Shown piece by piece: positions 25,071 to 64,000 of a stretch of DNA of 64,000 nucleotides. How positions within the stretch are numbered: the first letter of the stretch is position 1; the number at the start of each line of letters is the position of its first letter. Under the pieces are notes generated by a model. The model had not been told where the DNA came from. It was given only the letters and a program-made list of their open reading frames with translations, and ran no database searches. The position numbers were made by a program, and so were the translations under genes. The stretch comes from Escherichia coli phage KS_S14. The stretch is from the sequence record LC788706.1. The stretch is one strand, 5' to 3'.

Positions 25071-25090
25071 GAGAAACACTGTTATTTAAG

Positions 25091-25172: not shown

Positions 25173-25182
25173 GCTTATCCTA

Positions 25183-30136: not shown

Positions 30137-30164
30137 TTACCTGCTAGTATTTTCTAGCAGGTAA
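30137..30164 (+). promoter_or_regulatory. intercistronic palindrome ttacctgctag/ctagcaggtaa
   Basis: 11-bp perfect arms with 6-nt AT loop between genes. Confidence 0.4.
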
Positions 30165-30200
30165 TGCGGAACAATCCCCAAATAACTAGGAGTTTATATT

Positions 30201-30452: not shown

Positions 30453-30466
30453 TTTAGTGTTAACTT

Positions 30467-30494
30467 TATATTCCCCTGAAATATGGGGAATATA
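30467..30494 (+). promoter_or_regulatory. intercistronic palindrome tatattcccc/ggggaatata
   Basis: 10-bp perfect arms, 8-nt loop. Confidence 0.4.
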
Positions 30495-30553
30495 ACGATT
30501 AACATTAAGTTAATCATTAAATCCCTTAAATTAAACTAATAGGAGTTTTTACC

Positions 30554-31339: not shown

Positions 31340-33010
31340 ATGATTATTTCCGCAGAAAAACAAACCGTTATCCTGAAAATGGCCGCTGACTTTAATTTCT
31401 ATGGTAAACGTCTGCGCGCTACTAAACTGGAAGTCTGCGACGATATATCAAAAGCGGTCTACGATACTACTAAACACTCCACCGCTATCTGCGACTGGCT
31501 GGAAGCAAATAAACCAGCTAAACCGAAAGCTGCAAAAGTAGCAAAAGCCATTAAAAACGATGAGCGCCCAGAAGCGGCGGGAATTGTTTCTAGTACGGTT
31601 GAGCAATGGGAAGTAAAACAGGGTAAACGCTTTATTATTACGTCGATTCAGAATAATACTTTCCCGCATAAAAACTTTTTGTCCTCGCTTGAACAATACG
31701 CTAAATATATCGGCGCTGATTTGCTTGTTTCTAAGTATATTTATAATAAAAACGGCTTCCAGAATGGAGAAGGTGCAGACGGTATCAAATACGATCCCGC
31801 ATTTGATAAATATATTTGCAGCAAAAACGTGTTTTTAAATAACCGCCGCTTTGCTTTCATGGCTGAAATTAATGTTTTGCCCACCGCAGATTATCCGCTT
31901 TCAGGATTCGCAGAAACTGCAACGGCTTTAAATATTGAAGGGCTGGCAATTGGTCATGCTAAAATTACCGCCGAAAGCGTGCCAGCTCTCAAAGGTGAGG
32001 TAGTGCGCCGCATGTATTCAACCGGAACGGCGACGTTAAAAAACTATATCCAGCAAAAAGCAGGGCAAAAAGCCGAGGCGCTGCATAACTTCGGCGCGCT
32101 GATTGTTGAGTTCGACGAGGACGGGGAATTTTTTGTTCGCCAGCTTGAAACAATGGATGAAAGCGGGGTGTTTTATGATCTGAACGTTTGCGCTACTCCT
32201 GCCGGATGTTATGAAACATCGGGACATGTTTTAGGCTTGCAATATGGCGACATCCACGCAGAAAAATTAGATGAGGAGTGCGCCGCCGCATCTTGGGGGC
32301 ATGGTGACACCTACGGGCTTGTGGATATTCTTAAACCAAAATATCAATTCGTCCATGACGTGCATGATTTTACATCACGCAACCATCACAACCGCGCATC
32401 CGGTGTATTCCTAGCAAAACAATACGCCGCCGGACGTGATAAGGTATTAGATGATCTTATCGATACGGGGCGCGTATTGGAATCAATGGAGCGCGATTTT
32501 TCTCAAACGATCATCGTAGAATCAAACCATGATTTAGCTTTATCCCGTTGGCTGGATGATCGTAACGCCAACATTAAAGACGACCCTGCAAACGCGGAAC
32601 TATATCACCGCCTGAATGCCGCTATTTACGCCGCAATCGGTGAGCATGATGAAACGTTTAACGTGCTTGATTATGCGCTGCGCAAAGTTGCAGGTTGTGA
32701 GTTTAACGCCATTTTCCTAACGACTGACCAGTCTTTCAAGATTGCAGGCATTGAATGCGGCGTACACGGTCACAATGGCATTAACGGCAGCCGTGGCAAT
32801 CCTAAACAATTTAAGAAATTGGGCAAGTTAAACACGGGGCATACGCATACCGCCAGCATTTACGGCGGTGTATATACCGCTGGCGTGACTGGTAGTCTGG
32901 ACATGGGTTACAACGTTGGCGCGTCTAGCTGGACTCAAACGCATATTATTACCTATGCAAACGGTCAACGCACTTTGATTGACTTTAAGAATGGTAAATT
33001 CTTTGCGTAA
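31340..33010 (+). CDS. A1: A1-like pre-early protein, calcineurin-like metallophosphoesterase (putative nuclease)
   Basis: 556 aa, the size recalled for T5 A1; motifs GDIHAEK, HDVHD, ESNHD, GHNGINGSRGN, GHTHT. Confidence 0.6.
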   Translation: MIISAEKQTVILKMAADFNFYGKRLRATKLEVCDDISKAVYDTTKHSTAICDWLEANKPAKPKAAKVAKAIKNDERPEAAGIVSSTVEQWEVKQGKRFIITSIQNNTFPHKNFLSSLEQYAKYIGADLLVSKYIYNKNGFQNGEGADGIKYDPAFDKYICSKNVFLNNRRFAFMAEINVLPTADYPLSGFAETATALNIEGLAIGHAKITAESVPALKGEVVRRMYSTGTATLKNYIQQKAGQKAEALHNFGALIVEFDEDGEFFVRQLETMDESGVFYDLNVCATPAGCYETSGHVLGLQYGDIHAEKLDEECAAASWGHGDTYGLVDILKPKYQFVHDVHDFTSRNHHNRASGVFLAKQYAAGRDKVLDDLIDTGRVLESMERDFSQTIIVESNHDLALSRWLDDRNANIKDDPANAELYHRLNAAIYAAIGEHDETFNVLDYALRKVAGCEFNAIFLTTDQSFKIAGIECGVHGHNGINGSRGNPKQFKKLGKLNTGHTHTASIYGGVYTAGVTGSLDMGYNVGASSWTQTHIITYANGQRTLIDFKNGKFFA

Positions 33011-49573: not shown

Positions 49574-52500
49574 ATGACTGATAAGCTAATACGAGAATTA
49601 CTAATAGACGTTAAACAGAAGGGGGCAACTCGTACTGCAAAGTCTATTGAAAACGTATCTGATGCGTTGGAAAATGCTGCTGCTGCTTCCGAACTGACAA
49701 ATGAGCAGTTAGGTAAAATGCCCAAAACTCTTTATTCCATTGAGAGGGCAGCAGACAGAGCAGCAAAAAGTCTTACTAAAATGCAAGCTAGTAGGGGTAT
49801 GGCTGGTATCACCAAATCTATTAATGATATTGGTGATAAACTAGATTACCTAGCTATCCAACTTATTGAAGTAACAGATAAACTAGAAATTGGATTCGAT
49901 GGAGTTTCTAGATCTGTTAAAACAATGGGCAATGATGTTGCAGCTGCAACAGAGAAAGTTCAAGATAGGTTATACGATACTAATAGAGTTTTAGGCGGTA
50001 CAACCAGAGGTTTTAATGATACTGCTGGTGCCGCTGGTAGAGCGTCTAGAGCCATTGGTAATACTTCTGGTTCAGCACGTGGTGCAACTCGTGATTTTGC
50101 AGCAATGGCTAAGATAGGTGGTAGTTTACCTATTATGTACGCAGCTCTTGCTTCCAACATCTTCGTTTTGCAATCAGCATTTGAACAACTTAAACTAGGT
50201 GATCAGCTAAATCGTTTAGAAAAATTTGGTGTTATAGTAGGTACTCAGACAGGTACTCCTGTTCAGACCCTTGCTAGATCACTACAAGAAGCTGCTGGAT
50301 ATGCTATTTCTTTTGAGGAAGCAATGAGACAGGCATCTTCAGCATCAGCTTATGGGTTTGATGCCGAACAACTTAATAAATTTGGTTTAGTAGCTCGTCG
50401 TGCGGCTGCTGTTCTTGGCGTTGATATGACTGATGCACTTAACCGTGTAATTAAGGGCGTATCTAAACAAGAAATCGAACTTCTGGATGAACTTGGTGTC
50501 ACCATTCGTCTTAATGACGCATACGCTGATTATGTTAAACAGTTAAATGCTGCAAACACAGGTATAACATATAATGTTAATAGTCTTACCACTTTCCAGA
50601 AGCAACAAGCATACGCTAATGCGGTAATTGCTGAATCTACTAAGCGTTTTGGCTACCTAGATGAAGTACTACGTGCAACTCCATGGGAGCAATTTGCTGC
50701 TAATGCAGATGCTGCACTAAGAAAAATACAACAAGCTGCTGCTAAGTATTTAGGGCCAGTAATTGATGCTATCAACACAGTATTTTATACATCTCAGGCT
50801 TCTATATCTGCTGAGGCAGCTAGGGCCCAAGAAAAAACTAATAGACAGATAGACCCTACCAACGTTGGTGCTGTTGCTTTAAGTTTAGCTGCATCTGAAG
50901 AAGGCTATAATAAAGCTCTAGATATGTATAAGGAATCTCTTGATAAGCGTAATAAGCTAAAATCTGAGTTCGATAAACGAATGGAACAAGCAGATTTCTA
51001 TACAAAACTAGCTATACGTCAAGTTGGTGAAGGTATTCCTATTGGTCTTGCAGCAGCAGGTGCCTCGGAGGCCAATAAGCAATTTGTAGCAGAAACTGCA
51101 GCTATGGGTCTACAAGTAACTAGACTTGGTAAGGAAGTAGAGGATTCTACAGAGAACCTCAATGCTTGGAAATCAGCGTATCAAGCTGCCGGGGCTGCTG
51201 CTGCAAAGGCTAGTCCAGAGTTTCAGAAGCAAATTAATCTACAGAGAGATACTACTGATCCTGGTGCTGTATATGATTTTAACTCTACTGTATTAAAAGG
51301 ACTAACTGAGCAGCAGAAAGCATACAATCAGACTAAGAAAACTGCTAGTGACTTAGCTAATGATATACAGAACGTTGCTCAGAATACAGATACTGCTGCT
51401 AAAACTAGTGCTACTTTAGCAGATGCTATAAAAAACATAGAATCTCTATCTCTAGGTACTGGTAAGAGTGCTGATGAATACGTTAAAAATCTTAACCTAG
51501 GCTATAATACTCTGTCTGAAATGAAAACTGCGTCTCAGGCCTTATCTGAGTACGTTAAACTAACTGGTAATGAGACTAAGAACCAGTTAGCAGTTCAACA
51601 GAAGATAGCTGACGTATACAACCAAACTAAAGATAAAGAAAAAGCACAGGAAGCTGGTAGGCGTTTAGAACTCCAACAGTTAGAAGAGCAAGAAGCTGCT
51701 TTACGCCGTGTACTTCAAACTAATCAGGGAAATAAAGCTGTTGAGAAAGAAATTGAAAAAATTCAGCTGGAGAAACTTAAACTTACTAATCAGGGTATGG
51801 AGGCTCAGAAGAAGGTTAAGGATTATACAGATAAAATCCTGGGTGTAGATCGTGAGATAGCTCTCTTAAATAACCGTACTATGACAGATACTCAGTATCG
51901 TCTAGCACAGTTAAATCTTGAATTGACCATTGAAAAGGAAAAGTACGAATGGTATACAAAACAAGCTGATAAACAGAAAGAGGCTGAACAGTCTAGACGT
52001 GCTCAAGCCCAAATTGAACGTGAAATCTGGAAATTCCGCCAAGATCAGATTGCTTCAATGGCTGCTGGTAGAGAGGAAGAACAGCAAAGACAATTTACTG
52101 CTAAACCACTAATGGGAAATGCGGAGCGCTTACAGGAACAGCTAAAATTATATGAAGACTTAAAGCAGAAAACATTAGGTAATGCTGCGGCACAAGCGGA
52201 GTATAATAAAAAGATAGCTGAAACTAGGGCACAACTAGCAGGTTTAAGGGCACAGAGAAATGCGGAGATGCAAGCTTCTGTTGGATCTTCTTTAGGTGCT
52301 GTGTATACTCCTACAACTGGACTATCTGGAGAAGATAAAGATTTTGCTGATATGGGAAATAGAATGGCTTCTTATGATCAGGCAATTTCTAAACTATCTG
52401 AGTTAAATTCCGAAGCAACTGCTGTAGCTCAAAGCATGGGTAATTTAACCAATGCTATGATTCAGTTCTCTATGGGGTCTTTAGACACTACTTCCACGAT

Positions 52501-53254
52501 CGCAGCAGGTATGCAGACTGTAGCCTCTATGATTCAATATAGTACTAGTCAACAGGTTAGTGCGATTGATCAGGCTATTGCAGCAGAGCAGAAACGAGAT
52601 GGTAAATCAGAAGCATCTAAAGCTAAGTTGAAGAAGTTGGAAGCTGAAAAGCTGAAGATTCAACAAGACGCAGCTAAGAAGCAGATTATCATCCAAACTG
52701 CAGTAGCTGTAATGCAGGCAGCCACCGCTGTTCCATATCCGTTCTCTATTCCACTAATGGTTGCGGCAGGTTTGGCGGGTGCCTTAGCTCTTGCTCAAGC
52801 ATCTTCTGCTTCTAGTATGTCAAGTATTGCTGATTCGGGAGCTGATACAACTAGTTACTTAACCTTAGGAGAGCGTCAGAAGAATATAGATGTGTCTATG
52901 TCTGCTAATGCAGGTGAACTATCTTATATTCGTGGAGATAAAGGCATAGGCGGTGCTAACTCTTTCGTTCCTCGCGCTGAGGGTGGTAATATGTACCCTG
53001 GGGTTAGCTATCAAATGGGTGAGCATGGTACAGAAGTAGTTACCCCTATGGTTCCTATGAAAGCTACACCTAATGATGAGCTAAAAACCTCATCTAACTC
53101 AACTTCAGGAAGACCTATCATCTTGAATATTAGTGCTATGGATGCTGCAAGTTTCAGAGAGTTTGCTTCTAGTAATAGTAGTGCTCTAAGAGACGCAGTA
53201 GAATTAGCTCTGAATGAGAACGGTGCTAGTTTGAAAACATTAGGAAATTCTTAA
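49574..53254 (+). CDS. tail tape measure protein (pb2-like)
   Basis: 1226 aa; Ala/Gln-rich coiled coil, C-terminal hydrophobic segment; size close to recalled T5 pb2. Confidence 0.75.
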   Translation: MTDKLIRELLIDVKQKGATRTAKSIENVSDALENAAAASELTNEQLGKMPKTLYSIERAADRAAKSLTKMQASRGMAGITKSINDIGDKLDYLAIQLIEVTDKLEIGFDGVSRSVKTMGNDVAAATEKVQDRLYDTNRVLGGTTRGFNDTAGAAGRASRAIGNTSGSARGATRDFAAMAKIGGSLPIMYAALASNIFVLQSAFEQLKLGDQLNRLEKFGVIVGTQTGTPVQTLARSLQEAAGYAISFEEAMRQASSASAYGFDAEQLNKFGLVARRAAAVLGVDMTDALNRVIKGVSKQEIELLDELGVTIRLNDAYADYVKQLNAANTGITYNVNSLTTFQKQQAYANAVIAESTKRFGYLDEVLRATPWEQFAANADAALRKIQQAAAKYLGPVIDAINTVFYTSQASISAEAARAQEKTNRQIDPTNVGAVALSLAASEEGYNKALDMYKESLDKRNKLKSEFDKRMEQADFYTKLAIRQVGEGIPIGLAAAGASEANKQFVAETAAMGLQVTRLGKEVEDSTENLNAWKSAYQAAGAAAAKASPEFQKQINLQRDTTDPGAVYDFNSTVLKGLTEQQKAYNQTKKTASDLANDIQNVAQNTDTAAKTSATLADAIKNIESLSLGTGKSADEYVKNLNLGYNTLSEMKTASQALSEYVKLTGNETKNQLAVQQKIADVYNQTKDKEKAQEAGRRLELQQLEEQEAALRRVLQTNQGNKAVEKEIEKIQLEKLKLTNQGMEAQKKVKDYTDKILGVDREIALLNNRTMTDTQYRLAQLNLELTIEKEKYEWYTKQADKQKEAEQSRRAQAQIEREIWKFRQDQIASMAAGREEEQQRQFTAKPLMGNAERLQEQLKLYEDLKQKTLGNAAAQAEYNKKIAETRAQLAGLRAQRNAEMQASVGSSLGAVYTPTTGLSGEDKDFADMGNRMASYDQAISKLSELNSEATAVAQSMGNLTNAMIQFSMGSLDTTSTIAAGMQTVASMIQYSTSQQVSAIDQAIAAEQKRDGKSEASKAKLKKLEAEKLKIQQDAAKKQIIIQTAVAVMQAATAVPYPFSIPLMVAAGLAGALALAQASSASSMSSIADSGADTTSYLTLGERQKNIDVSMSANAGELSYIRGDKGIGGANSFVPRAEGGNMYPGVSYQMGEHGTEVVTPMVPMKATPNDELKTSSNSTSGRPIILNISAMDAASFREFASSNSSALRDAVELALNENGASLKTLGNS

Positions 53255-53261
53255 AACTGGA

Positions 53262-53285
53262 GGAGGACTTTGAGTCCTCCTTTTC
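53262..53285 (+). terminator. rho-independent terminator after tape measure
   Basis: Stem ggaggac-tttga-gtcctcc followed by TTTT. Confidence 0.65.
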
Positions 53286-53286
53286 T

Positions 53287-53303
53287 TTATGGAAAAATAA
53301 AAA
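53287..53303 (+). promoter_or_regulatory. conserved late-region motif TTATGGAAAAATAAAAA
   Basis: Third copy, again directly after a terminator. Confidence 0.3.
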
Positions 53304-53307
53304 TTTC

Positions 53308-53336
53308 TTGATAAAATTTTCTAATACTATTATAAT
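53308..53336 (+). promoter_or_regulatory. sigma70-type promoter (TTGATA-17-TATAAT) inside late tail cluster
   Basis: Consensus hexamers, then GAGGAG RBS and ATG at 53364. Confidence 0.45.
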
Positions 53337-53363
53337 ATTGTTATTAAAGAGGAGAAATTAACT

Positions 53364-53978
53364 ATGAGATTACCAGACCCATACACGAATCCAGAACTTT
53401 CAGGCTTAGGATTCGAAAGTGTTAACCTGATTGATAATGACCCAGTAATTCGTGATGAGTTACCAAATGGTAAAGTTAACGAAGTTAAGGTATCTGCTCA
53501 ATACTGGGGTATAAATATTTCTTATCCAGAATTATTTCCAGATGAATATAGTGTTCTAGATGCATTTATTCTAGAATACAAAAGGACTGGTGGTTATATA
53601 GATGTTATATTACCACAATACGAAGCTTTTAGAGTTAGAGGTAATACTAGCCTAGTAAATATACCTGCTGGACAGAAGGGTTCTAATATAACTATGGATA
53701 CAAAAGGACTTCTCACAGGTATTCCAAAACCAGGGGATCTATTTAAGCTATCTAACCATCCAAAAGTATATAAAATAACATCATTCAATAAATCAGGCAA
53801 TACGTGGTCTATAAACTTATACCCTGATTTATTTATAACTACTACTGGGGCTGAGAAACCAGTGTTTAACGGAATACTATTTAGAACAAAACTCATGAAT
53901 GGTGATGCTTTCGGATCTACATTAAATAATAACGGAACATATTCCGGCATCTCATTAAATTTACGGGAAAGTTTATGA
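53364..53978 (+). CDS. distal tail protein (pb9-like)
   Basis: 204 aa immediately after tape measure; length matches recalled T5 pb9. Confidence 0.55.
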   Translation: MRLPDPYTNPELSGLGFESVNLIDNDPVIRDELPNGKVNEVKVSAQYWGINISYPELFPDEYSVLDAFILEYKRTGGYIDVILPQYEAFRVRGNTSLVNIPAGQKGSNITMDTKGLLTGIPKPGDLFKLSNHPKVYKITSFNKSGNTWSINLYPDLFITTTGAEKPVFNGILFRTKLMNGDAFGSTLNNNGTYSGISLNLRESL

Positions 53979-56824
53979 AGAAAATACTAGATAGTGCTAG
54001 AAACTACTTAAAAAATAATAGCAGAATAAAAACTGCTAGTCTAATTTCCCTAGAATTACCTGGCTCTACTGGTACTAGTACTGCTTTTATTTATTTAACT
54101 GATTATTTTAGAGATGTACTATATAATGGTATTTTGTACCAGGCCGGTAAGGTTAAGTCCATTAGCACACATAAACAAAATAGAGATTTATCTATTGGCA
54201 GTCTATCTTTTACTATTACGGGTACAGCGCAGGATGAAGTACTGAAATTAGTGCAGAATGGTGTGTCCTTTTTAGATAGAATAGTAACAATCCACCAAGC
54301 AATTATTACAGAGGATGGTTCTATTTTACCTGTAGACCCAGACACAAATGGCCCTTTATTATACTTTAGAGGGAGAATTACCGGTGGGGGTATTAAGGAC
54401 AACATTAGTACTTCTGGGGTTGGAACCTCCACAATTACTTGGAATTGTTCTAACCAATTCTATGACTTTGATAGGGTTAACGGTAGATTTACTGATGATG
54501 CTTCTCATAGAGGGCTTGAGGTTGTAGCAGGGCAATTAGTTCCATCTAACGGGGCTAAAAGACTTGAGTACCAAGAAGATTATGGGTTCTTTCATGCTAA
54601 TAAAAGTATCTCTATTTTAGCAAAATATCAGGTACAGGAAGAGAGATACAAGCTAAAGTCTAAGAAAAAGCTATTTGGCCTATCTAGAAGCTATAGTCTT
54701 AAAAAGTATTATGAGACTGTTACTAAAGAAGTAGATATAGATTTTAACCTTGCTGCTAAGTATATACCAGTAGTTTATGGTGTACAGAAAATACCAGGAA
54801 TACCTATTTTTGCGGATACGGAACTACACAATCCTAATATAGTTTATGTAGTATACGCCTTTGCTGAAGGGGAGATAGACGGTTTTCTTGACTTTTCCTT
54901 CGGGGATAACCCTATGATTTGTATGGACTCTAATGATAGCTCTGCTAGAACCTGTTTCGGTGTTAAAAAAGTAGCAGGAGACACCATGCAAAGAATAGCA
55001 TCAGGAATATCTTCTAGTAGTCCTTCTGTGCATGGTCAGGAATATAAGTATAATGATGGTAATGGTGATATAAGGATTTGGACTTATCATGGAAAAGCTG
55101 ATCAAACGGCTTCTGAAGTATTAGTAGACATAGCGAAAGAACGTGGGTTCTACCTTCAGAATATGAATGGCAATGGACCGGAGTACTGGGATGCTAGGTA
55201 TAAACTACTAGATACTGCATACGCAGTGGTGCGCTTCACTATTAATGAAAATAGGACTGAGATTCCTGAAGTTAGTGCTGAAATTCAAGGTAAAAAAGTA
55301 AAAGTCTATCATTCTGATGGTAGAGTAACTGCTAATAGTACTAGTTTAAATGGTATTTGGCAAACACTTGACTACTTAACCTCCGATAGATACGGTGCTA
55401 ATATTACCATTGATCAGTTCCCTCTTCAGCAATTAATACAGGAAGCAGCTATTTTAGATATTATAGATGAATCCTATCAGGTATCTTGGCAGCCATATTG
55501 GAGATACGTTGGGTGGACTGATCCACTAGCAGAAAATAGACAAATAGTACAAATGAATACTATTCTGGATACATCTGAATCAGTATTTAAAAATGTGCAA
55601 GGTTTATTAGAGTCCTACGGTGGGGCTATTAACAACTTATCTGGCCAGTACAGGATTACTGTAGAAAAATACTCTAATACTCCATTAGAGATTAATTTTC
55701 TAGATACTTACGGTGATTTGGAGCTATCAGATACTACTGGTAGAAATAAATTCAACTCAGTTCAAGCATCTATCGTAGATCCAGCCCTTAGCTGGAAAAC
55801 TAATTCCATTACATTCTATAACTCCAAGTATAAGGAACAGGACAAGAACCTAGACAAAAAATTACAATTATCTTTTGCAAATATAACTAACTACTATACT
55901 GCTAGAAGTTTTGCAGACAGAGAACTTAAGAAATCTAGGTATTCTAGAACCCTCTCATTTTCTTTACCATATCAATTCATTGGTATTGAGCCTAATGATG
56001 CTATTGCATTTACATACGACCGTTACGGATGGGATAAGAAGTACTTTTTAGTAGATGAAGTCGAAAACTCTAGGGAAGGAAAGATAAATGTTACTCTACA
56101 GGAGTATGGAAAAGATGTATTCATCAACTCTGATCAAGTAGATAATAGTGGTAATGATATACCAGATATTAGTAACAACGTTCTTCCTCCTAGAGATTTT
56201 AAGTATACTCCTACACCCGGTGGCTTAGTTGGTTCTATAGGTAAAAATGGTGAGTTATCCTGGCTTCCGAGTCTAACCAATAATGTAGTTTATTACTCTA
56301 TTGTGCACTCAGGCCATGCCGAACCTTACATAGTACAACAGTTAGAGACCAATCCTAACGAACGTATGATCCAAGAAATAATTGGGGAACCAGCAGGTCT
56401 GGCTATATTTGAGATAAGAGCAGTAGATATTAATGGTAGAAGAAGTTCCCCGGTGACTCTGTCTATAGAACTTAACTCTGCTAAAAACCTTAGTGTAGTA
56501 TCTAATTTTAGGGTAACTAATACTGCTTCTGGAGATGTAACTGAGTTTGTTGGCCCAGATGTAAAACTAGCTTGGGATAGAATACCTGAAGAAGATATAA
56601 TAGAGAGTATATTTTATACACTTGAAATACACGATTCGCAAAATAGGATGTTAAGAAGTGTACGTATTGAAAATCAGTATACTTATGACTATTTATTAAC
56701 ATATAATAAGGCAGACTTTGCTCTCCAGAACAGCGGTGCTCTAGGTATAAATAGAAAATTGTATTTTCGTATTAGGGCTGAAGGGGATGATGGAGAACAG
56801 TCTGTGGAGTGGGCATCCATTTAA
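53975..56824 (+). CDS. baseplate hub / tail tip protein (pb3-like)
   Basis: 949 aa; position after distal tail protein; length matches recalled T5 pb3. Confidence 0.6.
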   Translation: MKKILDSARNYLKNNSRIKTASLISLELPGSTGTSTAFIYLTDYFRDVLYNGILYQAGKVKSISTHKQNRDLSIGSLSFTITGTAQDEVLKLVQNGVSFLDRIVTIHQAIITEDGSILPVDPDTNGPLLYFRGRITGGGIKDNISTSGVGTSTITWNCSNQFYDFDRVNGRFTDDASHRGLEVVAGQLVPSNGAKRLEYQEDYGFFHANKSISILAKYQVQEERYKLKSKKKLFGLSRSYSLKKYYETVTKEVDIDFNLAAKYIPVVYGVQKIPGIPIFADTELHNPNIVYVVYAFAEGEIDGFLDFSFGDNPMICMDSNDSSARTCFGVKKVAGDTMQRIASGISSSSPSVHGQEYKYNDGNGDIRIWTYHGKADQTASEVLVDIAKERGFYLQNMNGNGPEYWDARYKLLDTAYAVVRFTINENRTEIPEVSAEIQGKKVKVYHSDGRVTANSTSLNGIWQTLDYLTSDRYGANITIDQFPLQQLIQEAAILDIIDESYQVSWQPYWRYVGWTDPLAENRQIVQMNTILDTSESVFKNVQGLLESYGGAINNLSGQYRITVEKYSNTPLEINFLDTYGDLELSDTTGRNKFNSVQASIVDPALSWKTNSITFYNSKYKEQDKNLDKKLQLSFANITNYYTARSFADRELKKSRYSRTLSFSLPYQFIGIEPNDAIAFTYDRYGWDKKYFLVDEVENSREGKINVTLQEYGKDVFINSDQVDNSGNDIPDISNNVLPPRDFKYTPTPGGLVGSIGKNGELSWLPSLTNNVVYYSIVHSGHAEPYIVQQLETNPNERMIQEIIGEPAGLAIFEIRAVDINGRRSSPVTLSIELNSAKNLSVVSNFRVTNTASGDVTEFVGPDVKLAWDRIPEEDIIESIFYTLEIHDSQNRMLRSVRIENQYTYDYLLTYNKADFALQNSGALGINRKLYFRIRAEGDDGEQSVEWASI

Positions 56825-58881
56825 TGATTTCAAATAATGCACCAGCCAAAATGGTCTTAAATAGTATAATGACTGGATATACTTTGGCTTATGTCCAGCA
56901 CTCCATTTATACTGATTATGATGTTATTGGTAGATCTTTTTGGTTAAAAATAGGAGAAAGTATAGATAGACGTGATTACACCGGTATAGATACTTTCTTC
57001 GTAATGATTAATAATTTAACCCCCTCTACCTCCTATGAGATTCAGGGGGCTTTCTATGACTCAATTATTGACTCAGAGTTACTAGAAGCTAAGATTGGTA
57101 TCAACCTCTCTAATGAAACTAACTTTAGAACAAAGGAAAAGCCAATAATTACTGCAGCAAGATCTGAATCAGAACCCGTTGACGTTGGTGTTGGTGCTCC
57201 AATAGTTGTTGTAGAGACTGCTGGTGAGGCTAGTTACTGCACTATTGAATTAAAAAGTACTGCATCAGAAGATAGTGAATGGGTTAAATATTACATAGGA
57301 GCACTGGGACCTACTATCAAATTTGGTGGTGTTCCTGTTGGCAACTATAAGATCAGAATATCTGGTCAAGTTACTATGCCAGATGGTGTTACAGTTGACT
57401 CATCTGGCTATTATGAATATCCTAGCGTTTTCACTGTAGCTTATAATTTCGTACCACCTACTGCACCTACTAACATTGACTTTAAAGCTGCACGAATCGC
57501 AGACGGTAAGGAACGATATGATGTTAGAATAGAGTGGGACTGGGAACGTGGTGCTGGTGCTAATGTCCGTGAATTTCTGGTTACTTATATAAACTCTGAA
57601 GAATATTCTAAGACTGGCTGGGCTAAAGCTCAAAAGATAAACGTTGGTGCTGCCAGAGCCGCAACGATTATATCATTCCCATGGAAAGTTGAGCATACTT
57701 TTAAGGTATCATCAATTGCCTGGGGACCAAATAAGCAAGATATAGCAGAATCAGCTCCTGTAACGTTTATACTTAATGAAGATACTCCTCTAGACAACAG
57801 CTTTGTCAATGAGACTGGTATTGATGTTAACTATGCCTTTATTAAGGGCAGCATGAAAGATGGAGAAATCTGGAGACAGACATTCTTAATCGACGCAGCT
57901 ACTGGTGCTATTAACATTGGTCTGCTAGATGAAGAAGGAAAAGCACCTATTTCTTTTGACCCTATAAACCGTGTTGTTAACGTTGATGGTAAAGTAATTA
58001 CTAGAGATATTAATGCTGCGAACTTTATCATGACTAACTTATCTGGTAAGGATAATCCAGCAATTTACACTCAAGGTAAATCTTGGGGTGATAATAACTC
58101 CGGTATTTGGATGGGTATGGATAATACTTCTGCCAAAGCTAAACTAGACATTGGTAACGCCACACAATGGATACGTTATGATGGTGATGTGCTACGTATT
58201 TCTAGTGGAGTAGTTATTGGAACTCCTAATGGCGATGTAGATCTGGGTACTGGTATGCAAGGTAAGCAAACAGTATTTGTTTATAAGTTAGCAACATCTC
58301 TACCTGCTAAACCACTAGAACAAGATTATCCGCCTCCTGGTTGGTCAAAAACTCCACCTAACCGTACAGATATGACACAAAATATCTATACCACTACAGG
58401 TACGCTTGATCCAGTTACTAATAGGTTATTAGAGGGTACTAGCTGGTCGGATGTAGTTCAGTGGAGTGGTACTGAAGGTACTATAGGGCATGATGGACAA
58501 CGTGGTCCTGGGATGTATTCTGTAGGTATAGCAGGTTTAGGTGGTTGGGATGATGGACAAGCTAATTCCTTCTTTCAAAGTAACTTCGGTTCTCCACCAG
58601 TTAAATACGATGTATTAACTGAATTTAATAGTAATGCCCCCCAATCAGCATTTACAAGGCAATGGAATGGGTCTGGTTGGGTTAACCCTGCAATGGTTCT
58701 CCATGGAAACATGATTGTTAATGGGACGGTGACGGCAGATAAAATTGTAGCAGGAAATGCTTTCTTATCTCAGATCGGTGTTAACATCATTTATGATAGG
58801 AATGCTGCATTATCGGGAAACCCTGAGGCATACTACAAGATGAAGATAGACCTAAATAGTGGGTATATCCATATAAGGTAA
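56809..58881 (+). CDS. central tail fibre / tail tip protein (pb4-like)
   Basis: 690 aa following baseplate hub. Confidence 0.55.
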   Translation: MGIHLMISNNAPAKMVLNSIMTGYTLAYVQHSIYTDYDVIGRSFWLKIGESIDRRDYTGIDTFFVMINNLTPSTSYEIQGAFYDSIIDSELLEAKIGINLSNETNFRTKEKPIITAARSESEPVDVGVGAPIVVVETAGEASYCTIELKSTASEDSEWVKYYIGALGPTIKFGGVPVGNYKIRISGQVTMPDGVTVDSSGYYEYPSVFTVAYNFVPPTAPTNIDFKAARIADGKERYDVRIEWDWERGAGANVREFLVTYINSEEYSKTGWAKAQKINVGAARAATIISFPWKVEHTFKVSSIAWGPNKQDIAESAPVTFILNEDTPLDNSFVNETGIDVNYAFIKGSMKDGEIWRQTFLIDAATGAINIGLLDEEGKAPISFDPINRVVNVDGKVITRDINAANFIMTNLSGKDNPAIYTQGKSWGDNNSGIWMGMDNTSAKAKLDIGNATQWIRYDGDVLRISSGVVIGTPNGDVDLGTGMQGKQTVFVYKLATSLPAKPLEQDYPPPGWSKTPPNRTDMTQNIYTTTGTLDPVTNRLLEGTSWSDVVQWSGTEGTIGHDGQRGPGMYSVGIAGLGGWDDGQANSFFQSNFGSPPVKYDVLTEFNSNAPQSAFTRQWNGSGWVNPAMVLHGNMIVNGTVTADKIVAGNAFLSQIGVNIIYDRNAALSGNPEAYYKMKIDLNSGYIHIR

Positions 58882-58887
58882 TAAATA

Positions 58888-59310
58888 ATGAGTACTGAAA
58901 ATAGAGTTATAGACTTAGTAATAGATGAAAAAGTACCTTATGGTCTAATGATGCAATTCTTAGATGTTGATGATAGTACTTATCCACCTACAAATACCCC
59001 TGTTAACTTAACAGGGTATTCCCTAAGGGGTACTATAAAGGCGGGGCTTGATGAGAACGCGGAAACTTTGGCATCTTTTACTACTAAAATTATTGATGCT
59101 GCTCAAGGTGCTATAGCTATAAGTTTACCTGTAGAGGCGGTAGATAATATTGGTGAAAAAGCTACCAAAGAGAGAGATAAGTATAACCCTCGCCAACGTT
59201 TTGCAGGATACTATGATATAATTATGACACGAGATGTCATAGGATCAGCTATTAGCTCTTTTCGTATAATGGAGGGTAAAGTATTTATCAGTGATGGGGT
59301 AACTAGATAA
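58888..59310 (+). CDS. collar protein candidate (p132-like)
   Basis: 140 aa between pb4-like and fibre genes. Confidence 0.4.
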
Positions 59311-60983
59311 TGGCAATAACTACTAAGATTATTGTACAACAAATATTAAATATTGATGATACTAAAGCTACTGCTAGTAAATTTCCTAGATACACAGTAA
59401 CTCTTGGAAATTCTATTAGCTCTATTACTGCTAATGAGTTAGTATCTTCTATAGAGGCTGCTGCTAAATCTGCTGCGGCTGCAAAAGATTCTGAAATAGC
59501 TGCTAAAACCTCAGAACTTAATGCTAAGAACTCTGAACAGAAAGCTGCTATTTCTGCTACTGAAGCAGGAAAACAAGCTACTAATGCTGCTAATAGTGCT
59601 AATACTGCTAAAACTGAAGCCGATCGTTCAAAAACTGAGGCTGATAGATCAGAAGCTGCTGCTAATTCTACCCCCGACATTCAACCTCTTCCAGATGTAT
59701 GGATACCGTTTAACGATTCTCTAGATATGATCACCGGCTTTGCGCCAGGCTATAAAAAAATAACAGTCGGTGATGAGGAAATAACACTGCCCAGTGACAA
59801 GATTGTTAGCTTTACACGTGCATCAACTGCGACATATATTAATAAATCAGGTGTATTAACTGTTGCGGGGATTGATGAACCTAGATTTGAAAAGGATGGT
59901 TTGCTCATTGAGGGGCAAAGAACTAACTATCATCTTAACTCACTTACGCCATCTAAGTGGGGAGCTACAACAAGTGTAACTATAACAGAAAGTGGTGTTG
60001 ATGAGTTTGGATTTACTTATGGGCGGTTTCAAATAAAGGACGAAAAAATTGGGACAAATACGGCAATGAATATCGCTGCGATTTCAGGAGGAAGAGGTGT
60101 CGATGTTACCGGAACTGAAAAGTATGTTACAACATCATGTCGTGTAAAAAGCGATAGTGCTAATATACAATGTCGTATAAGATTTGAAAGATATGACGGA
60201 TCCGCATATTTTTATCTAGCAGATGCATATCTTAATATAACAGATATGTCCATTAGAAAAACGGGAGTAGGGGCTGCAAGAATAACCGCCCGAGCGGAGA
60301 AAGAATCTAATGGATGGATTTATTTCGAGGTTACATATCAATCTGAAGCTATTGATAATATGGTTGGCTCTCAGATCCAAATTGCTCCACCTGTTTCACC
60401 TGGCACTTATTCTGGTGGAGAGTACTTACAGGTAGCTACCCCTCAAGTTGAAGGCGGGGCGTGCGCTTCATCGTTTATTATTACAGAAGCGACTCCAGTA
60501 ACACGGGCAAGCGATATGGTCACATTACCAATAAAAAACAACCTTTACAATTTGCCGTTTACAGTACTTGTGGAAGCTCATAAAAACTGGAGTATAACGC
60601 CAAATGCAGCGCCACGTGTTTTTGATACCAGCGGTCATCAAACCGGAGCGGCTATTATTCTTGCTTTCGGATCTGCCGAAGGCGATAATGATGGTTTCCC
60701 TTATTGCGATATAGGTAAATCAAACAGAAGGGTTTACGAGAATGCAAAACTAAAAAAGATGATCATGGGAATGAGAGTAAAGAGTGATTACAATACTTGC
60801 TGTGTAAGTAATGCCAGAATATCAAGCGAAACAAAAACGGAATGGAGATACATACAATCAACGGCTACTATAAGGATTGGAGGACAAACAACTACGGGCG
60901 GACGTCATCTTTTCGGGCACGTTAGAAACTTTAGAATCTGGCATAAGGAACTAACTGATAGACAAATGAAGGAGTATGTATGA
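59310..60983 (+). CDS. tail fibre protein with Ala-rich coiled-coil N-terminus and distinct C-terminal domain
   Basis: 557 aa; N-terminal AAAKSAAAAKDSEIAAK coiled coil; C-terminal half has different composition. Confidence 0.55.
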   Translation: MAITTKIIVQQILNIDDTKATASKFPRYTVTLGNSISSITANELVSSIEAAAKSAAAAKDSEIAAKTSELNAKNSEQKAAISATEAGKQATNAANSANTAKTEADRSKTEADRSEAAANSTPDIQPLPDVWIPFNDSLDMITGFAPGYKKITVGDEEITLPSDKIVSFTRASTATYINKSGVLTVAGIDEPRFEKDGLLIEGQRTNYHLNSLTPSKWGATTSVTITESGVDEFGFTYGRFQIKDEKIGTNTAMNIAAISGGRGVDVTGTEKYVTTSCRVKSDSANIQCRIRFERYDGSAYFYLADAYLNITDMSIRKTGVGAARITARAEKESNGWIYFEVTYQSEAIDNMVGSQIQIAPPVSPGTYSGGEYLQVATPQVEGGACASSFIITEATPVTRASDMVTLPIKNNLYNLPFTVLVEAHKNWSITPNAAPRVFDTSGHQTGAAIILAFGSAEGDNDGFPYCDIGKSNRRVYENAKLKKMIMGMRVKSDYNTCCVSNARISSETKTEWRYIQSTATIRIGGQTTTGGRHLFGHVRNFRIWHKELTDRQMKEYV

Positions 60984-61258
60984 GAGATATAATCCTAAAA
61001 TTCACGGATAAATCAGCATATAAAGATTTTCTCTTAAAAATAGAGTGGGATACTAATGAAAATTTGCAAAACCAAATAATGCTTGACGAAATTGGATATA
61101 CTTATACTGAAATCTCTCCGCTAGGTGATGAGGAACCTAGATGCATCCGTAATGAAGGGTATTATATTAATGTAAGGATTCTTGATGAATCCTTTACTTA
61201 CGAATCCTTCGAGCCTTTTATAGTTCAGCTAGAACAGCCTCTTAGAGTATGGGCATAA
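60980..61258 (+). CDS. hypothetical protein, possible fibre assembly factor
   Basis: 92 aa between two fibre genes. Confidence 0.4.
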   Translation: MRDIILKFTDKSAYKDFLLKIEWDTNENLQNQIMLDEIGYTYTEISPLGDEEPRCIRNEGYYINVRILDESFTYESFEPFIVQLEQPLRVWA

Positions 61259-61267
61259 GGTTTTATA

Positions 61268-63036
61268 ATGGTAACTAAAACAGTAATTCCTACGGATATT
61301 ACAAAACTTAAAAATGAGTCACTTAATAAAAATAATAACCTGAGTGACTTAGCAGACCGTGCAGCAGCATGGCTAAATGTGCGTCCTATTGGATCTACCC
61401 CTCTTGCTGGAGATCCTGTTAGTGACTATGATGCCGCAACTAAGCGTTGGGTGGAGAACAAACTTAATACTGGCACAGTAGGACCCACAATGAATGGTGT
61501 TATGAACTACGGGGTGGGGGATTTTCATCTTCGAGATAGCCGTGCGTATATTCAACCTTATGAGGTAGTTTCTGATGGGCAGCTTCTTAACAGGGCTGAC
61601 TGGCCTGAACTTTGGGCGTATGCACAAATGGTTGGAGCTATAGATGATTCAGTTTGGTTAGCAGATGTAGGACAACGTGGGAAATATTCTACGGGAGATG
61701 GTACCACTACTTTCCGCGTCCCAGATCGTAATGGTGTGCAACTAAATTCAATCAAAGGGTTATTCGCTCGTGGTGACGGTGGGGGGATGCTGGTCAAGCT
61801 GGTTCAATATCAGAAGCTGCAGCACCCAATATTACTGGTAGTTTTCCTGGCGCTATTGCTGGTGCATATGAAGAAGCGCTTAATAGATATTCATCTAGAT
61901 TTGGTCTTATTGGGGCGATTGGTGGTGAAAACGGCTTAGGTGCCGCTCCTGGAGGTGCATCTAAATCATTCGCCGTAGTTAATCCTGATAACCAATACGG
62001 ATTTAGTTTTGATGCAAACTTAGCGGACCCTGTTTATGGGCGTTATGGAATAAAAGGTACTATTATTCCAAACAGCTTTATAGGTGTCTGGGTAATCCGT
62101 GCTTCTGGTGGGTTCGTGGCTGCAAAGACTTCGTGGAGTGTTATTAGTGGTGATGCTGTCAAACCTAATACTGGTACTACTGTTTATGGCGGGAGTGTAC
62201 TATCTGAGTATAAAGTAGGTACTAGTAGTGAGGCTGTAAGTACACTACGAGCTAAAGCTACTATTGGTGGCACCTACTCTACTGAACTACTAATAGACAA
62301 TAAATCTACCGGTAAATCGAATTCCGCCCAGCTTGTAGATAATGGGGATTTTGTAACGGATCGTTTTAAAGCTAGATTAGTTACTGGCATGGCGTGGTCT
62401 CAGACTGGCTGGGTACAAGGTACTCTTTCTCAGAACGAGGTCAATATAGGTAGTACATTTAACTTTAATAGTATATTGAGCGGTTCCCAGTCTTCTTCCG
62501 CAGGGTATAAGACATCTGCACATTTTGGATTAATTCATAATGACTTAGGCTCATTTGCAGATTCTTGTTGGCAGGTAGCGGGAGATGATGATAATAAATT
62601 TGGTGTGCGTTTAAAAATTCAGCCGAATAATAATAGTATTTATTTTTATTCTTGGTGGCCAGGTGCTTCAGCAACCTATACTTTGCAATTAAATGCTGTA
62701 TCTGATTCTCGCTTAAAGCATGATATTAAGGCTATAGACGCAACTAAGTCCATCGAGGTATTAAAAGGATTAGAATTCCAATCCTTTGTATATAATAACG
62801 ATGAAAAATCTCGTGTCCGACGTGGGGTTATTGCTCAGCAAGTAGAGACTATAGAACCACTTTATGTAAAAACTAGAAAATTTTATAATGATGACGGAAT
62901 AGAGCAGGAGCAAAAGGAATTAGATACAACTCCAATGCTTCTTGACACTATGCATGTTGTGCAAGATCTTATTAAACGGATTGAAGATCTAGAGAAAGAG
63001 CTTGAGCAATTAAAGGTACAATTAGTATCACAATAA
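61268..63036 (+). CDS. L-shaped tail fibre-like protein with C-terminal intramolecular-chaperone domain; interrupted by frameshift at G6 run 61781-61786
   Basis: Frame 2 ORF 61268..61939 and frame 1 ORF opening after TGA at 61774 join at GGGGGG; C-terminus SDSRLKHDIKAID...GVIAQQVE...LEKELEQLK resembles self-cleaving chaperone domain. Confidence 0.5.
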
Positions 63037-63037
63037 A

Positions 63038-63078
63038 AGAAAACCCCAGTGGACAAAATCCACTGGGGTTTATTATTT
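63038..63078. terminator. bidirectional rho-independent terminator between convergent genes
   Basis: Stem ccccagtgga...tccactgggg flanked by A-run upstream and T-run downstream. Confidence 0.7.
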
Positions 63079-63092
63079 ATTTTATATGTAGA

Positions 63093-63539
63093 TTACTTAC
63101 TTCCTGAACTTCCAAATCCTCCTTCTCCACGTACAGTCTCTTCTAACTCATCAACGATTTCAAAATTATGAGTTGAGTAATGTGGCAATACCACTAGCTG
63201 ACAAAGTCTCTCGAAATTCTCCAGAGTTTGCATTTCAGAACCGTAATTATAGAGGTTCATCTTAATAGTACCACGATAGTCTGAGTCGATCACCCCTGCG
63301 GTGTTTGCAATCATCAAATAGCGCTTACCTAAAGAGCTACGAGGAACCACCAAACCGAACCAACCTCGCGGAATTTCTACCGCGACACCGGTGTCAATCA
63401 TTAGGGATTTGCCTGGCGCAATAGCACGTAAATCTGCGGCAGGGTTTGTACCAAAGAATGCTCGCAGATCCATACCTGCGGCATCTTCGGAACCAATCTT
63501 AGGCATACAATCTGGATTAGTTAATTTAATTTTAATCAT
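63093..63539 (-). CDS. dut: dUTPase
   Basis: 148 aa; motifs AAGMDL, RSSLG, GVIDSDYRG and C-terminal RGEGGFGSSG. Confidence 0.85.
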   Translation of the reverse strand: MIKIKLTNPDCMPKIGSEDAAGMDLRAFFGTNPAADLRAIAPGKSLMIDTGVAVEIPRGWFGLVVPRSSLGKRYLMIANTAGVIDSDYRGTIKMNLYNYGSEMQTLENFERLCQLVVLPHYSTHNFEIVDELEETVRGEGGFGSSGSK

Positions 63540-64000
63540 TGTTCTGCAATCTCCAAAATATCTTTTGTAAACTTATCTAATACATCTTGACCTACAGCAG
63601 CAATAGCGTCCACACAGTAGGTAGGTAAATCAACTAAAATTAGGTTTCGATAAAGCAATTCTTCCGAAGCATTTAAATTCTGTATATATTTCTGTTTTCC
63701 AGGTAGTGGAAGCTGATCAATAATATCCAGAACGTTACCAAATTCACGAATAATATTATACCCGCGTTTTGCCCCAATACCTTCAACACCACGGATATTA
63801 TCCCCTAAATCACCCATAATTGCTTTCAGAGAGATAAACTGCTCTACATCGTCAACATTATGGTGCTCATACATATCACGAAGATGATATTCACGACGTG
63901 TTGTAAAAGAGAAGCGAGAAACTTTATCAGTTAATAAAGTATCCCAGTCACCATCGGTAGAAATTAGCCAAACATGATCATATAGATGCCCAATCAGCTT
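63536..64000 (-). CDS. 5'-3' flap endonuclease (D15-like), 3' portion; gene continues beyond window
   Basis: C-terminal H3TH-like region LGDNIRGVEGIGAKRG; open frame continues to window edge. Confidence 0.65.
   Translation of the reverse strand, partial: KLIGHLYDHVWLISTDGDWDTLLTDKVSRFSFTTRREYHLRDMYEHHNVDDVEQFISLKAIMGDLGDNIRGVEGIGAKRGYNIIREFGNVLDIIDQLPLPGKQKYIQNLNASEELLYRNLILVDLPTYCVDAIAAVGQDVLDKFTKDILEIAEQ

Follow-up and report, generated by a model that had tools for sequence, protein, structure and literature searches.

The gene at positions 59310-60983 of a 64,000-nt stretch of DNA from Escherichia coli phage KS_S14 (LC788706.1; hereafter the window) most probably encodes the virion-anchored proximal subunit of an L-shaped lateral tail fibre that carries a portable tip cassette, a reading to which we assign a probability of about 0.8 on the basis of sequence comparisons. 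The types of O-antigen or capsule that a T5-like phage can cross are set by its lateral tail fibres, and fibre modules therefore matter for host-range prediction and engineering. The window belongs to a T5-like phage, and the gene is largely ordinary, being a proximal lateral tail-fibre gene with a tip cassette of the sugar-binding type in an arrangement already described for the closest relatives. Its main message has been published for phages mar004NP2 (2019) and IrisVonRoten (2025). Added here are a corrected basis for the claim of exchange, which is evident from distribution rather than from GC content; the proposal that the exchange unit has three parts, namely the module, a 92-aa gene, and an adaptor peptide on the second fibre; and the documentation of a KS_S14 genome in which the shaft allele is minimal and the distal fibre gene broken. 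The shaft allele and the distal break are relevant before KS_S14 or its fibre is put to host-range use.

In the proposed mechanism, the first ~39 residues of the protein would plug into the LtfC collar, residues 40-117 would form a short trimeric coiled-coil rod, and residues ~118-557 would constitute the portable tip cassette, in which two conserved scaffold segments flank a CBM-like jelly-roll. The jelly-roll most likely binds a surface polysaccharide (O-antigen, LPS, or capsule) that would serve as the primary reversible receptor. The cassette moves between phage lineages along with the translationally coupled 92-aa gene and, in many phages, with the second fibre gene too, whose 16-residue N-terminal peptide probably docks onto the cassette.

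The locus follows the T5-type order of pb3, pb4, ltfC, and fibre genes, after which dut and a flap endonuclease gene lie on the opposite strand. The ltfC gene (58888..59310, + strand) codes for the collar protein (p132 type) to which the lateral fibres are fastened; its product matches the Pfam family LtfC (PF23926, E 8e-15) and is 84% identical to DT57C LtfC. The ltfC stop codon overlaps the ATG of the LtfA-type, short-shaft 557-aa fibre ORF (59310..60983, + strand) by 1 nt. An earlier note on this DNA had described one gene at 59310-61258 and called it the second fibre gene. There are two genes in this interval, the 557-aa fibre gene and a separate ORF, orf92 (60980..61258, + strand), for the conserved 92-aa partner of the C-terminal module, and the fibre gene is the first and virion-anchored one, located directly downstream from ltfC in the late tail operon. 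The observation thus held in part, in that the 557-aa ORF and its Ala-rich N terminus are confirmed, whereas its coordinates and its statement on GC content are not. The 557-aa product has 100% identity to a KS_S14 protein that is annotated as hypothetical.

The frameshifted gene for the distal (LtfB-type, "T-shaped") fibre, which matches phrog_6921, occupies 61268..63036 on the + strand. The tail-fibre operon is closed by a bidirectional terminator hairpin (63041..63071) whose 13-14-bp stem includes 7 G-C pairs and which is followed by a T-rich tail on either strand. Promoter scanning gave matches no higher than shuffled expectation, and a literature search for KS_S14 returned nothing relevant. 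An antisense Ala-rich ORF of 125 aa (59303-59680) was discounted because it mirrors the GCT-rich codons of the shaft.

The N-terminal anchor (aa 1-39; 59310..59426, + strand) is homologous to the N termini of DT57C LtfA and T5 pb1. By analogy with the cryo-EM structure of DT57C (Ayala 2023, PMC10713586), the protein would be a trimeric fibre seated in the LtfC ring, into which the anchor is predicted to insert. The anchor is followed by an Ala/Ser/Thr-rich coiled-coil shaft (aa 40-117; 59427..59660, + strand), recognized by its composition and by its alignment to the DT57C LtfA helix, with a strong GCT/TCT/ACT codon bias. The coiled-coil N terminus had been proposed earlier, and both composition and homology bear it out: residues 1-130 include 28 Ala, 15 Ser, and 14 Thr, and the N terminus is 55% identical to DT57C LtfA 1-202 (E 5e-34), a protein in which a coiled coil of three helices starts at T40 (PMC10713586). 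The 557-aa protein is mosaic, with matches to one PHROG family, 5481/24369, at aa 1-120 (phrog_5481, E 3e-53; phrog_24369, a 1396-aa profile, E 2e-29) and to a second, 1419/5939, at aa 82-557.

Evidence that the C-terminal part is portable comes from its distribution. A C-terminal module of ~427 aa was found by tblastn in 220 phage records, always at the C terminus of a lateral or side fibre; its identity is 35-77% among carriers, which belong to six or more lineages of coliphages. Carriers include Tequintavirus, Drexlerviridae such as tunus and KarlJaspers (69-74%), Dhillonvirus such as KarlBarth (59%), Vequintavirus FFH2 (44%), lambdoid phages such as phage 21 (51-65%), and Queuovirinae such as BRET and KurtStettler (35-68%), and in these other lineages the module is followed by an orf92 homologue. 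N-terminal anchors and shafts, in contrast, are lineage-specific, so that the module is joined to unrelated anchors of the T5 pb1, PF08400, and PF12571/PF03406 types. Judged by this distribution rather than by its composition, the C-terminal ~427 aa is an exchanged cassette; the exchange proposed in the earlier note therefore stands, on different grounds from the compositional ones given there.

Column identities computed over 10 fibres from other lineages, with KS_S14 as the reference, divide the module into three segments. The conserved proximal part (aa 118-217; 59661..59960, + strand) shows 65-74% column identity and the conserved distal part (aa 378-557; 60441..60980, + strand) 51-76%. 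Between them lies the most variable segment, a CBM-like jelly-roll domain with a putative glycan-binding site (aa 218-377; 59961..60440, + strand).

The closest relative is mar004NP2 (HOV62_gp054-gp051), to which positions 53,250-64,000 of the window are essentially identical, with 4 SNPs; the locus has 99.9% DNA identity, compared with 87-97% for the remaining genome. The two phages share ltfC, the proximal fibre, the 92-aa ORF, and the ltfB orthologue. They differ in the length of the proximal fibre and in one homopolymer of the distal gene. The 796-aa "tail protein" of mar004NP2 and the 557-aa fibre are identical except for a 239-aa gap and one G531E-type substitution. For mar004NP2, Michniewski et al. 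(2019, PMC6563131) had already put forward an L-shaped fibre made of LtfB and the product of one of the two genes that precede ltfB. In the mar004NP2 record the proximal fibre is marked as virion-confirmed by mass spectrometry and the distal fibre is not, which is weak counter-evidence because only eight proteins were detected in all (PMC6563131).

IrisVonRoten (Bas32; Maffei 2021, PMC8594841) has the same gene order and a module that is 95% identical over the last 440 aa, but its shaft allele is that of a 796-aa fibre and its distal fibre of 574 aa is intact. In the AlphaFold-Multimer model of a later report (Humolli 2025, 10.1101/2024.09.12.612763), Gp22 is the proximal fibre, and its galectin-like C-terminal domain protrudes. 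Gp24 is the T-shaped distal fibre, in which RBD1 (Gp12-like) and RBD2 (T5-like) are combined with an intramolecular chaperone. This published model suggests that the distal fibre is attached to the proximal one, and the comparative linkage seen here is consistent with it. The KS_S14 distal fibre shares with Gp24 the N-terminal ~170 aa and the C-terminal two-thirds. The ~100 aa that follow residue 170 in IrisVonRoten are unlike those of KS_S14, and receptor specificity may therefore differ from that of IrisVonRoten, which is reported to infect O16.

The rod of KS_S14 is the shortest allele seen, being 239 aa shorter than those of mar004NP2 and IrisVonRoten. Relative to the 796-aa alleles it carries a 717-bp in-frame deletion whose junction lies at 59544..59558 (+ strand), where two BLAST pieces share 15 nt. 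The long allele has the junction sequence, GCTGCTA(T/A)TTCTGCT, at each of the two ends, and both ends are members of a 13-copy family of 16-nt repeats inside shaft DNA with a 21-nt period. The shaft was probably shortened by deletion between 15-nt repeats in this periodic DNA.

The distal fibre gene measures 1769 nt in KS_S14 rather than the 1770 nt of mar004NP2, in which it forms an ORF of 589 aa, and it falls into two separate ORFs, one of 223 aa and one of 306 aa. The frameshift site is a G6 homopolymer (61775..61780, + strand) that is G7 in mar004NP2; the gene is otherwise the same in the window and in mar004NP2. The intramolecular chaperone of the distal fibre (Peptidase_S74; 62701..62859, + strand) is recognizable at aa 196-248 of the ORF at 62116 (PF13884, E 1.3e-12). 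A programmed -1 ribosomal slip on the G run that restores the frame was considered unlikely because mar004NP2, PMBT29, and IrisVonRoten encode the distal fibre as one uninterrupted ORF.

The short shaft, the frameshift, or both might instead be sequencing or assembly artefacts of the deposited genome, and we regard this as a serious possibility, although one with the lesser share of the odds. The highly repetitive shaft DNA could be collapsed by assemblers, a 1-nt change in a G7 run is a typical homopolymer error, and OR896837, from the same species, has its distal gene annotated as three CDS. The frameshift could accordingly be a homopolymer sequencing error. For the shaft, the comparisons point the other way. 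A Logan contig from an independent sample (L008) also encodes a 557-aa fibre, on a different sequence background with 41 nt differences, together with the 92-aa ORF and an intact distal fibre of 576 aa, and shaft length differs widely among many relatives. Judging from this contig and from that variation, the short allele is natural. A real inactivating frameshift is plausible because lateral fibres are often lost on permissive hosts (Golomidova 2016, PMC4728585), and VSe12 likewise carries a truncated version of 64 aa. If the 1-nt deletion is real, the virion would carry the proximal fibre only, bearing its own lectin-like tip.

What the tip does is suggested by its fold. The module gave nothing above threshold in Pfam; the sole C-terminal match, to the concanavalin A-like lectin/glucanase family Laminin_G_3 (PF13385) over the last 48 residues (aa 505-552), scores 18.7 bits, below the gathering threshold of 27.6, and marks a weak LamG-like end. 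The NCBIfam model GTA_spike_fiber (NF048003), however, matches aa 199-400 over profile positions 1-181 of 182, with 59 bits against a cut-off of 36 (E 9e-16). Similarly, the central jelly-roll matches the head spike fibre Rcc01080 of the Rhodobacter capsulatus gene transfer agent, RcGTA (PDB 6tb9, E 2e-9), and this central domain has a CBM fold. An AF2 monomer of the 436-aa module reached a mean pLDDT of 55, with confidence for the central domain only and low values in aa 378-557. Rcc01080 decorates the capsid of a gene transfer agent, whereas the KS_S14 jelly-roll forms the predicted tip of a siphovirus lateral fibre and has on either side a conserved segment that lies outside the match to Rcc01080.

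It could be argued that the module serves mainly as a structural hub for the distal fibre, such that the jelly-roll binds no receptor and the distal fibre alone recognizes the host. The flanks of the jelly-roll are indeed highly conserved across lineages, the adaptor peptide described below co-occurs with the module, and the published IrisVonRoten model speaks only of a possible additional receptor-binding domain. We nevertheless judge this explanation unlikely. Fibres of the phage 21 type and of FFH2 end in the module and have no second fibre gene adjacent to them, and the jelly-roll is more variable than the rest of the module, as expected of a receptor-binding surface. In addition, the jelly-roll has a CBM fold, and the RcGTA head spike fibre, to which it is homologous, is described as a protein that binds an extracellular polysaccharide as its receptor (PMC10218006).

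The second part of the proposed exchange unit is orf92. Its start overlaps the end of the fibre gene as ATGA, and an AAGGAG Shine-Dalgarno sequence lies 5 nt upstream. An orf92 homologue stands directly after the module in all 80 of 80 loci; that of IrisVonRoten (bas32_0023) is 92% identical to the KS_S14 protein, and AKFV33 has a distant homologue (35.5% identity). No sequence or fold similarity was found between orf92 and the known fibre chaperone families (Tfa or gp38-like). The 557-aa protein has no Pfam match to Peptidase_S74 (PF13884), and because the proximal fibre thus lacks an intramolecular chaperone, orf92 is most likely its dedicated assembly chaperone or an adaptor. The protein is not simply a connector for a second fibre, because the phage 21-type prophages and Vequintavirus FFH2 have the module and orf92 without an adjacent gene of that kind; in the phage 21 types, a gene for a 97-aa membrane protein stands where the third gene would be.

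The third part is the N-terminal peptide of the distal fibre, MVTKTVIPTDITKLKN (61268..61315, + strand), a candidate docking adaptor whose motif is conserved across lineages. In most module carriers from other lineages, the third gene opens with the same peptide as the KS_S14 distal fibre. The motif MVTKTVIPxDITxLK opens the gene after the orf92 homologue in 10 annotated phages from at least six lineages and is present in 31 of 77 IMG/VR loci, where the start lies 10-13 nt past the orf92 stop codon except for one overlapping start. A tblastn search with the 35-aa N-terminal peptide retrieved T5-like phages only (36 records) because the query was too short; conservation across lineages was established by reading the third genes directly. 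Apart from the shared opening, these third genes have bodies of 98 to 579 aa that bear no relation to one another.

Tentatively, then, the module, the 92-aa protein, and the 16-residue peptide may act as a portable "socket, helper and plug" for interchangeable second fibres in at least six coliphage lineages, although we hold this to be slightly less than an even chance. The lineages in question are the T5-like, T1-like, Dhillonvirus, lambdoid, Queuovirinae, and rV5-like phages. On this view, the 92-aa protein would represent a family of fibre chaperones or adaptors not characterised before.

Base composition contributes little to the case for exchange. The earlier note had described the C-terminal half as noticeably higher in GC and different in codon style from its neighbours. 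A recently acquired foreign domain that is still visible in this way is quite improbable, and the percentile tests largely refute it. The GC content of 59700-60980 is 0.404 in a window of 0.386, a value at the 79th percentile when all windows of its length are compared and at the 69th when only coding windows are, and its GC3 of 0.293 equals the gene mean (0.298 +/- 0.06). The next gene is GC-richer (0.41-0.48 over 61300-62400). Only the codon style received weak support. Synonymous-codon typicality of the C-terminal half is 0.055, whereas the eight long genes give 0.171 +/- 0.064 in windows of 427 codons; this is in the lowest 6.6%, one gene alone scores lower (31340-33010), and GCG, ACA, ACG, and TCA codons are modestly enriched. 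The compositional outlier within the fibre gene is the N-terminal Ala-rich part and not the C-terminal half: GC3 over aa 1-130 is 0.123, below all 708 coding windows of the same length, and its 28 Ala codons include 23 GCT. Composition was therefore rejected as evidence of transfer, which the distribution of the module demonstrates instead.

The earlier note had also suggested a branched two-component fibre. Two components agree with the published accounts of mar004NP2 and IrisVonRoten, but the implied branching of the DT57C type, in which LtfB docks by a phiEco32 gp15-like N terminus on a gp14-like region in the middle of the LtfA shaft, is highly improbable in KS_S14. There is real likeness between the two systems. 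DT57C (Golomidova 2016, PMC4728585; Ayala 2023, PMC10713586) shares the LtfC collar and the LtfA anchor and coiled coil, and in both phages a pair of fibre genes lies between ltfC and dut. The second gene of the pair, which carries Peptidase_S74 and is frameshifted in KS_S14, encodes a product 44% identical to DT57C LtfA 511-1073 and 57% identical to DT57C LtfB 206-528. Moreover, AKFV33, with its distant orf92 homologue, is named among the phages with two ltf genes (Golomidova 2016, PMC4728585).

The docking parts, however, are absent from KS_S14. The match to LtfA covers aa 1-202 only, and even the 796-aa orthologue aligns by BLASTP to DT57C residues ~1-205 only, without the gp14-like region (DT57C LtfA aa 223-471). 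The proximal fibre of DT57C has a receptor-binding domain and a chaperone at its end, whereas that of KS_S14 ends in the CBM-like cassette and is without Peptidase_S74. Alignment of the distal fibre with LtfB begins no earlier than LtfB residue 206, and the fibre opens with MVTKTVIPTDITKLKN rather than the MSRPLMPKSGAMAPYVV of DT57C LtfB, without the gp15-like 45 aa. Finally, KS_S14 differs from DT57C in having the extra 92-aa gene between its two fibre genes.

The span 59310-61258 belongs to the terminal part of a late tail operon of the T5 type, downstream from the genes for pb3 (53975-56824), pb4 (56809-58881, with four PB4 Pfam domains) and the LtfC collar protein (58888-59310, PF23926). 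An earlier note had read this span as a single "second fibre gene," but it holds two genes, both on the + strand. The proximal fibre gene (59310-60983) is a 557-aa ORF whose product shares 100% identity with a hypothetical protein from Escherichia coli phage KS_S14, and this gene is the first, virion-anchored fibre gene. The other gene, orf92 (60980-61258), is a 92-aa ORF whose start codon sits within an ATGA overlap, preceded at a distance of 5 nt by the ribosome-binding site AAGGAG. The distal fibre gene follows on the + strand (61268-63036), where it is seen as two ORFs in different frames. Genes for dUTPase and a flap endonuclease lie on the opposite strand 3' of these three genes. A hairpin at 63041-63071, with a perfect 13-14-bp stem and T-rich tails on both strands, separates the convergent fibre operon and dut, and is likely a bidirectional terminator closing the tail-fibre operon.

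Residues 1-120 of the proximal fibre match the T5 pb1-type fibre families phrog_5481 and phrog_24369. An orthologous 796-aa protein shares 55% identity with residues 1-202 of LtfA from phage DT57C, which has branched lateral fibres, and LtfC is 84% identical between the window and DT57C. In the cryo-EM structure of DT57C, the N-terminal part of LtfA inserts in a dodecameric LtfC ring and forms a three-helix coiled coil from T40 (PMC10713586). Homology to a solved structure thus backs the proposed Ala-rich coiled-coil N-terminus.

The same cannot be said of the higher GC content and different codon style that had been attributed to the C-terminal half (59700-60980). Its GC content of 0.404, relative to 0.386 for the window, falls at the 79th percentile when ranked against windows of equal length, and at the 69th when ranked against coding windows of that length. 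Moreover, its GC3 (0.293) equals the gene mean (0.298 +/- 0.06), and the distal fibre gene is richer in GC, reaching 0.48. A leave-one-gene-out score on synonymous codons, computed for 427-codon windows from eight long genes, gave 0.055 for the C-terminal half versus 0.171 +/- 0.064. This value is in the lowest 6.6% of windows, with only gene 31340-33010 lower, and counts as a weak signal. The stretch that clearly stands out is instead the N-terminal 130 codons, whose GC3 of 0.123 is below all 708 comparison windows and in which GCT accounts for 23 of 28 Ala codons. Little of the compositional observation is therefore left beyond the weak codon signal, and the contrast within the gene is made by the repetitive shaft and not by a foreign tip. 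An antisense 125-aa Ala-rich ORF (59303-59680, - strand) mirrors the GCT-rich shaft codons and is almost certainly not a gene.

Horizontal exchange of the C-terminal domain nevertheless finds support of another kind. A tblastn search with residues 131-557 recovered the module in 220 phage records, with identities of 69-74% in Drexlerviridae, 59% in Dhillonvirus KarlBarth, 51-65% in lambdoid phages (phage 21, 2G7b), 35-68% in Queuovirinae (BRET, KurtStettler), 44% in Vequintavirus FFH2, and 28% in Rhodobacter phage RcapMu. In all annotated cases it is the module with which a lateral or side fibre of the tail ends at its C-terminus. A protein-database search gave 2681 matches, whose N-terminal anchors are of at least four kinds (T5 pb1-type, PF08400/PF13620, PF12571/PF03406). 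It is this spread over lineages and anchors, and not composition, that shows exchange of the module between phages.

Residues 199-400 match the NCBIfam model NF048003 "GTA_spike_fiber" (59 bits; cut-off 36) and the RcGTA head spike fibre Rcc01080 (PDB 6tb9, E 2e-9), and the confidence of an AF2 monomer model is limited to this domain. The RcGTA protein is described as receptor-binding, with an extracellular polysaccharide as the receptor (PMC10218006). When 11 fibres of various lineages are compared, conservation is lowest in the jelly-roll (aa 218-377), with 36-55% column identity, whereas its flanks (aa 118-217, 378-437, and 518-557) are 65-76% conserved. This pattern fits a conserved scaffold displaying a variable, putatively glycan-binding surface.

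The module stands immediately upstream of orf92 in 80 of 80 IMG/VR loci carrying orf92. This ORF belongs to phrog_1361, a family of unknown function, and has homologues in 205 phage records; none of its 302 protein clusters, all unnamed, contains a Pfam domain. The Peptidase_S74 intramolecular chaperone is present in T5 pb1, in DT57C LtfA and LtfB, and in the distal fibre here, but a Pfam search found none in the 557-aa proximal fibre. From its position and linkage to the module, and given this difference, we propose that the orf92 product might act in trans as a helper or adaptor dedicated to assembly of the proximal fibre.

The distal fibre is one 589-aa ORF in Escherichia phage vB_Eco_mar004NP2 (Tequintavirus), and this orthologue shares 44% identity with residues 511-1073 of DT57C LtfA and 57% with residues 206-528 of LtfB. 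The two components of the fibre that the earlier note suggested match the published arrangement, although the branching is not of the DT57C type. Golomidova et al. proposed a gp14-like region of LtfA and a phiEco32 gp15-like N-terminus of LtfB as the docking pair. Alignment to DT57C found the former missing from the proximal fibre and the latter from the distal fibre, and therefore this mechanism does not apply here.

Instead, the distal fibre opens with MVTKTVIPTDITKLKN. In ten annotated phages from at least six lineages, this motif also opens the gene next to the orf92 homologue on its downstream side, and it occurs in 31 of 77 IMG/VR loci, 10-13 nt past the orf92 stop codon (one annotated start overlaps the stop). 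The bodies of these motif-bearing genes, 64 to 586 aa long, are mutually unrelated. We read the peptide as a probable plug attaching interchangeable second fibres to the cassette, a reading that agrees with the conservation of Drexlerviridae distal subunits being restricted to the far N-terminus (PMC8594841) and with the model for IrisVonRoten described below. Taken together, module, orf92, and peptide may constitute a portable socket-helper-plug system in which the 92-aa protein represents a new fibre helper family, a tentative proposal to which we assign a probability of about 40%. In FFH2 the adjacent position holds no third fibre gene, and in about 43 prophage loci of the phage 21 type a 97-aa membrane protein stands where this gene would be. 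That predicted protein (MDISPLLHALCAVAAQ...) starts 13 nt past the orf92 homologue in IMG/VR E. coli prophage loci (L025-L073) and in phage 21 (L005, 5569-5862).

The two-fibre arrangement itself is already described, because it has been published for two close relatives. At the 99.9%-identical locus of mar004NP2, an ltfB orthologue was reported after two non-orthologous genes, one of which was suggested to form a fibre together with LtfB (Michniewski et al. 2019). For the IrisVonRoten proteins (95% identical), Humolli et al. (2025) present Gp22 as a proximal fibre whose galectin-like C-terminal domain may be an additional receptor-binding domain, and Gp24 as a T-shaped distal fibre attached to Gp22 in an AlphaFold-Multimer model. 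IrisVonRoten infects K-12 with restored O16 antigen. To these accounts, our analysis adds corrected gene boundaries, refutation of the argument from GC, the short shaft and broken distal gene of this genome, and the cross-lineage linkage of module, 92-aa ORF, and adaptor peptide. The original observation is partly confirmed and its interpretation partly supported.

The shaft is 239 aa shorter than in mar004NP2, IrisVonRoten, and PMBT29 (each 796 aa), and outside this gap only one residue differs from mar004NP2. The deletion junction (59544-59558) is a 15-nt GCTGCTA(T/A)TTCTGCT, which the long allele has on either side of the stretch missing here, and both ends are members of a 13-copy repeat family in 21-nt periodic, heptad-coding DNA. 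Among T5-type fibres carrying the module, its start residue is 126, 203, 217, 253, 263, 267, or 365. An independent Logan assembly (L008, ERR11478452) also has a 557-aa fibre, in a different background, together with the 92-aa ORF and a distal fibre that is intact at 576 aa. From these comparisons the short form is best read as one probable allele of a length-polymorphic rod, and collapse of shaft DNA during assembly is the less likely origin. The two 557-aa alleles differ at 41 nt, and 33 of these differences lie within the first 275 nt (L008 824-1100 versus window 59310-59585), a clustering that suggests an additional recombination point between anchor/shaft and module. The module is nearly identical in the two alleles.

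The sole difference from mar004NP2 in the distal gene is a run of six G residues at 61775-61780 in place of seven, which shifts the frame after residue 172 and yields ORFs of 223 aa and 306 aa. This may reflect real inactivation of the distal fibre, given that loss of lateral fibres is frequent on permissive hosts (Golomidova et al.), or it may be a homopolymer sequencing error. The distal gene is annotated as three CDS in OR896837.1 (L015, 3353-5125), a second mar004NP2 isolate with a 685-aa shaft allele, and is reduced to a 64-aa remnant in VSe12. Apparent decay of this gene, or error, is recurrent across records.

DNA at 58800-63100 is 99.9% identical to mar004NP2, and near-identity extends from ~53,250 to the window end at 64,000, with four SNPs in 10.8 kb. 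The 53 kb upstream are only 87-97% identical, and the change is sharp, at 53,000-53,250, the 3' end of the tape-measure gene (49574-53254). The tail-tip and lateral-fibre block, at least 10.8 kb long, thus has the look of a recombination unit that was shared or exchanged recently. Elsewhere, ~540 bp of mar004NP2 (12415-12951 of its locus, L017), containing an H-N-H endonuclease F-TflVI gene, are missing at ~11,294-11,301, which is a homing-endonuclease presence/absence polymorphism. Window segments 24,000-25,500 and 28,500-30,900 have only 86-89% identity to mar004NP2 with dense small indels, and their counterparts there are largely without annotated genes.
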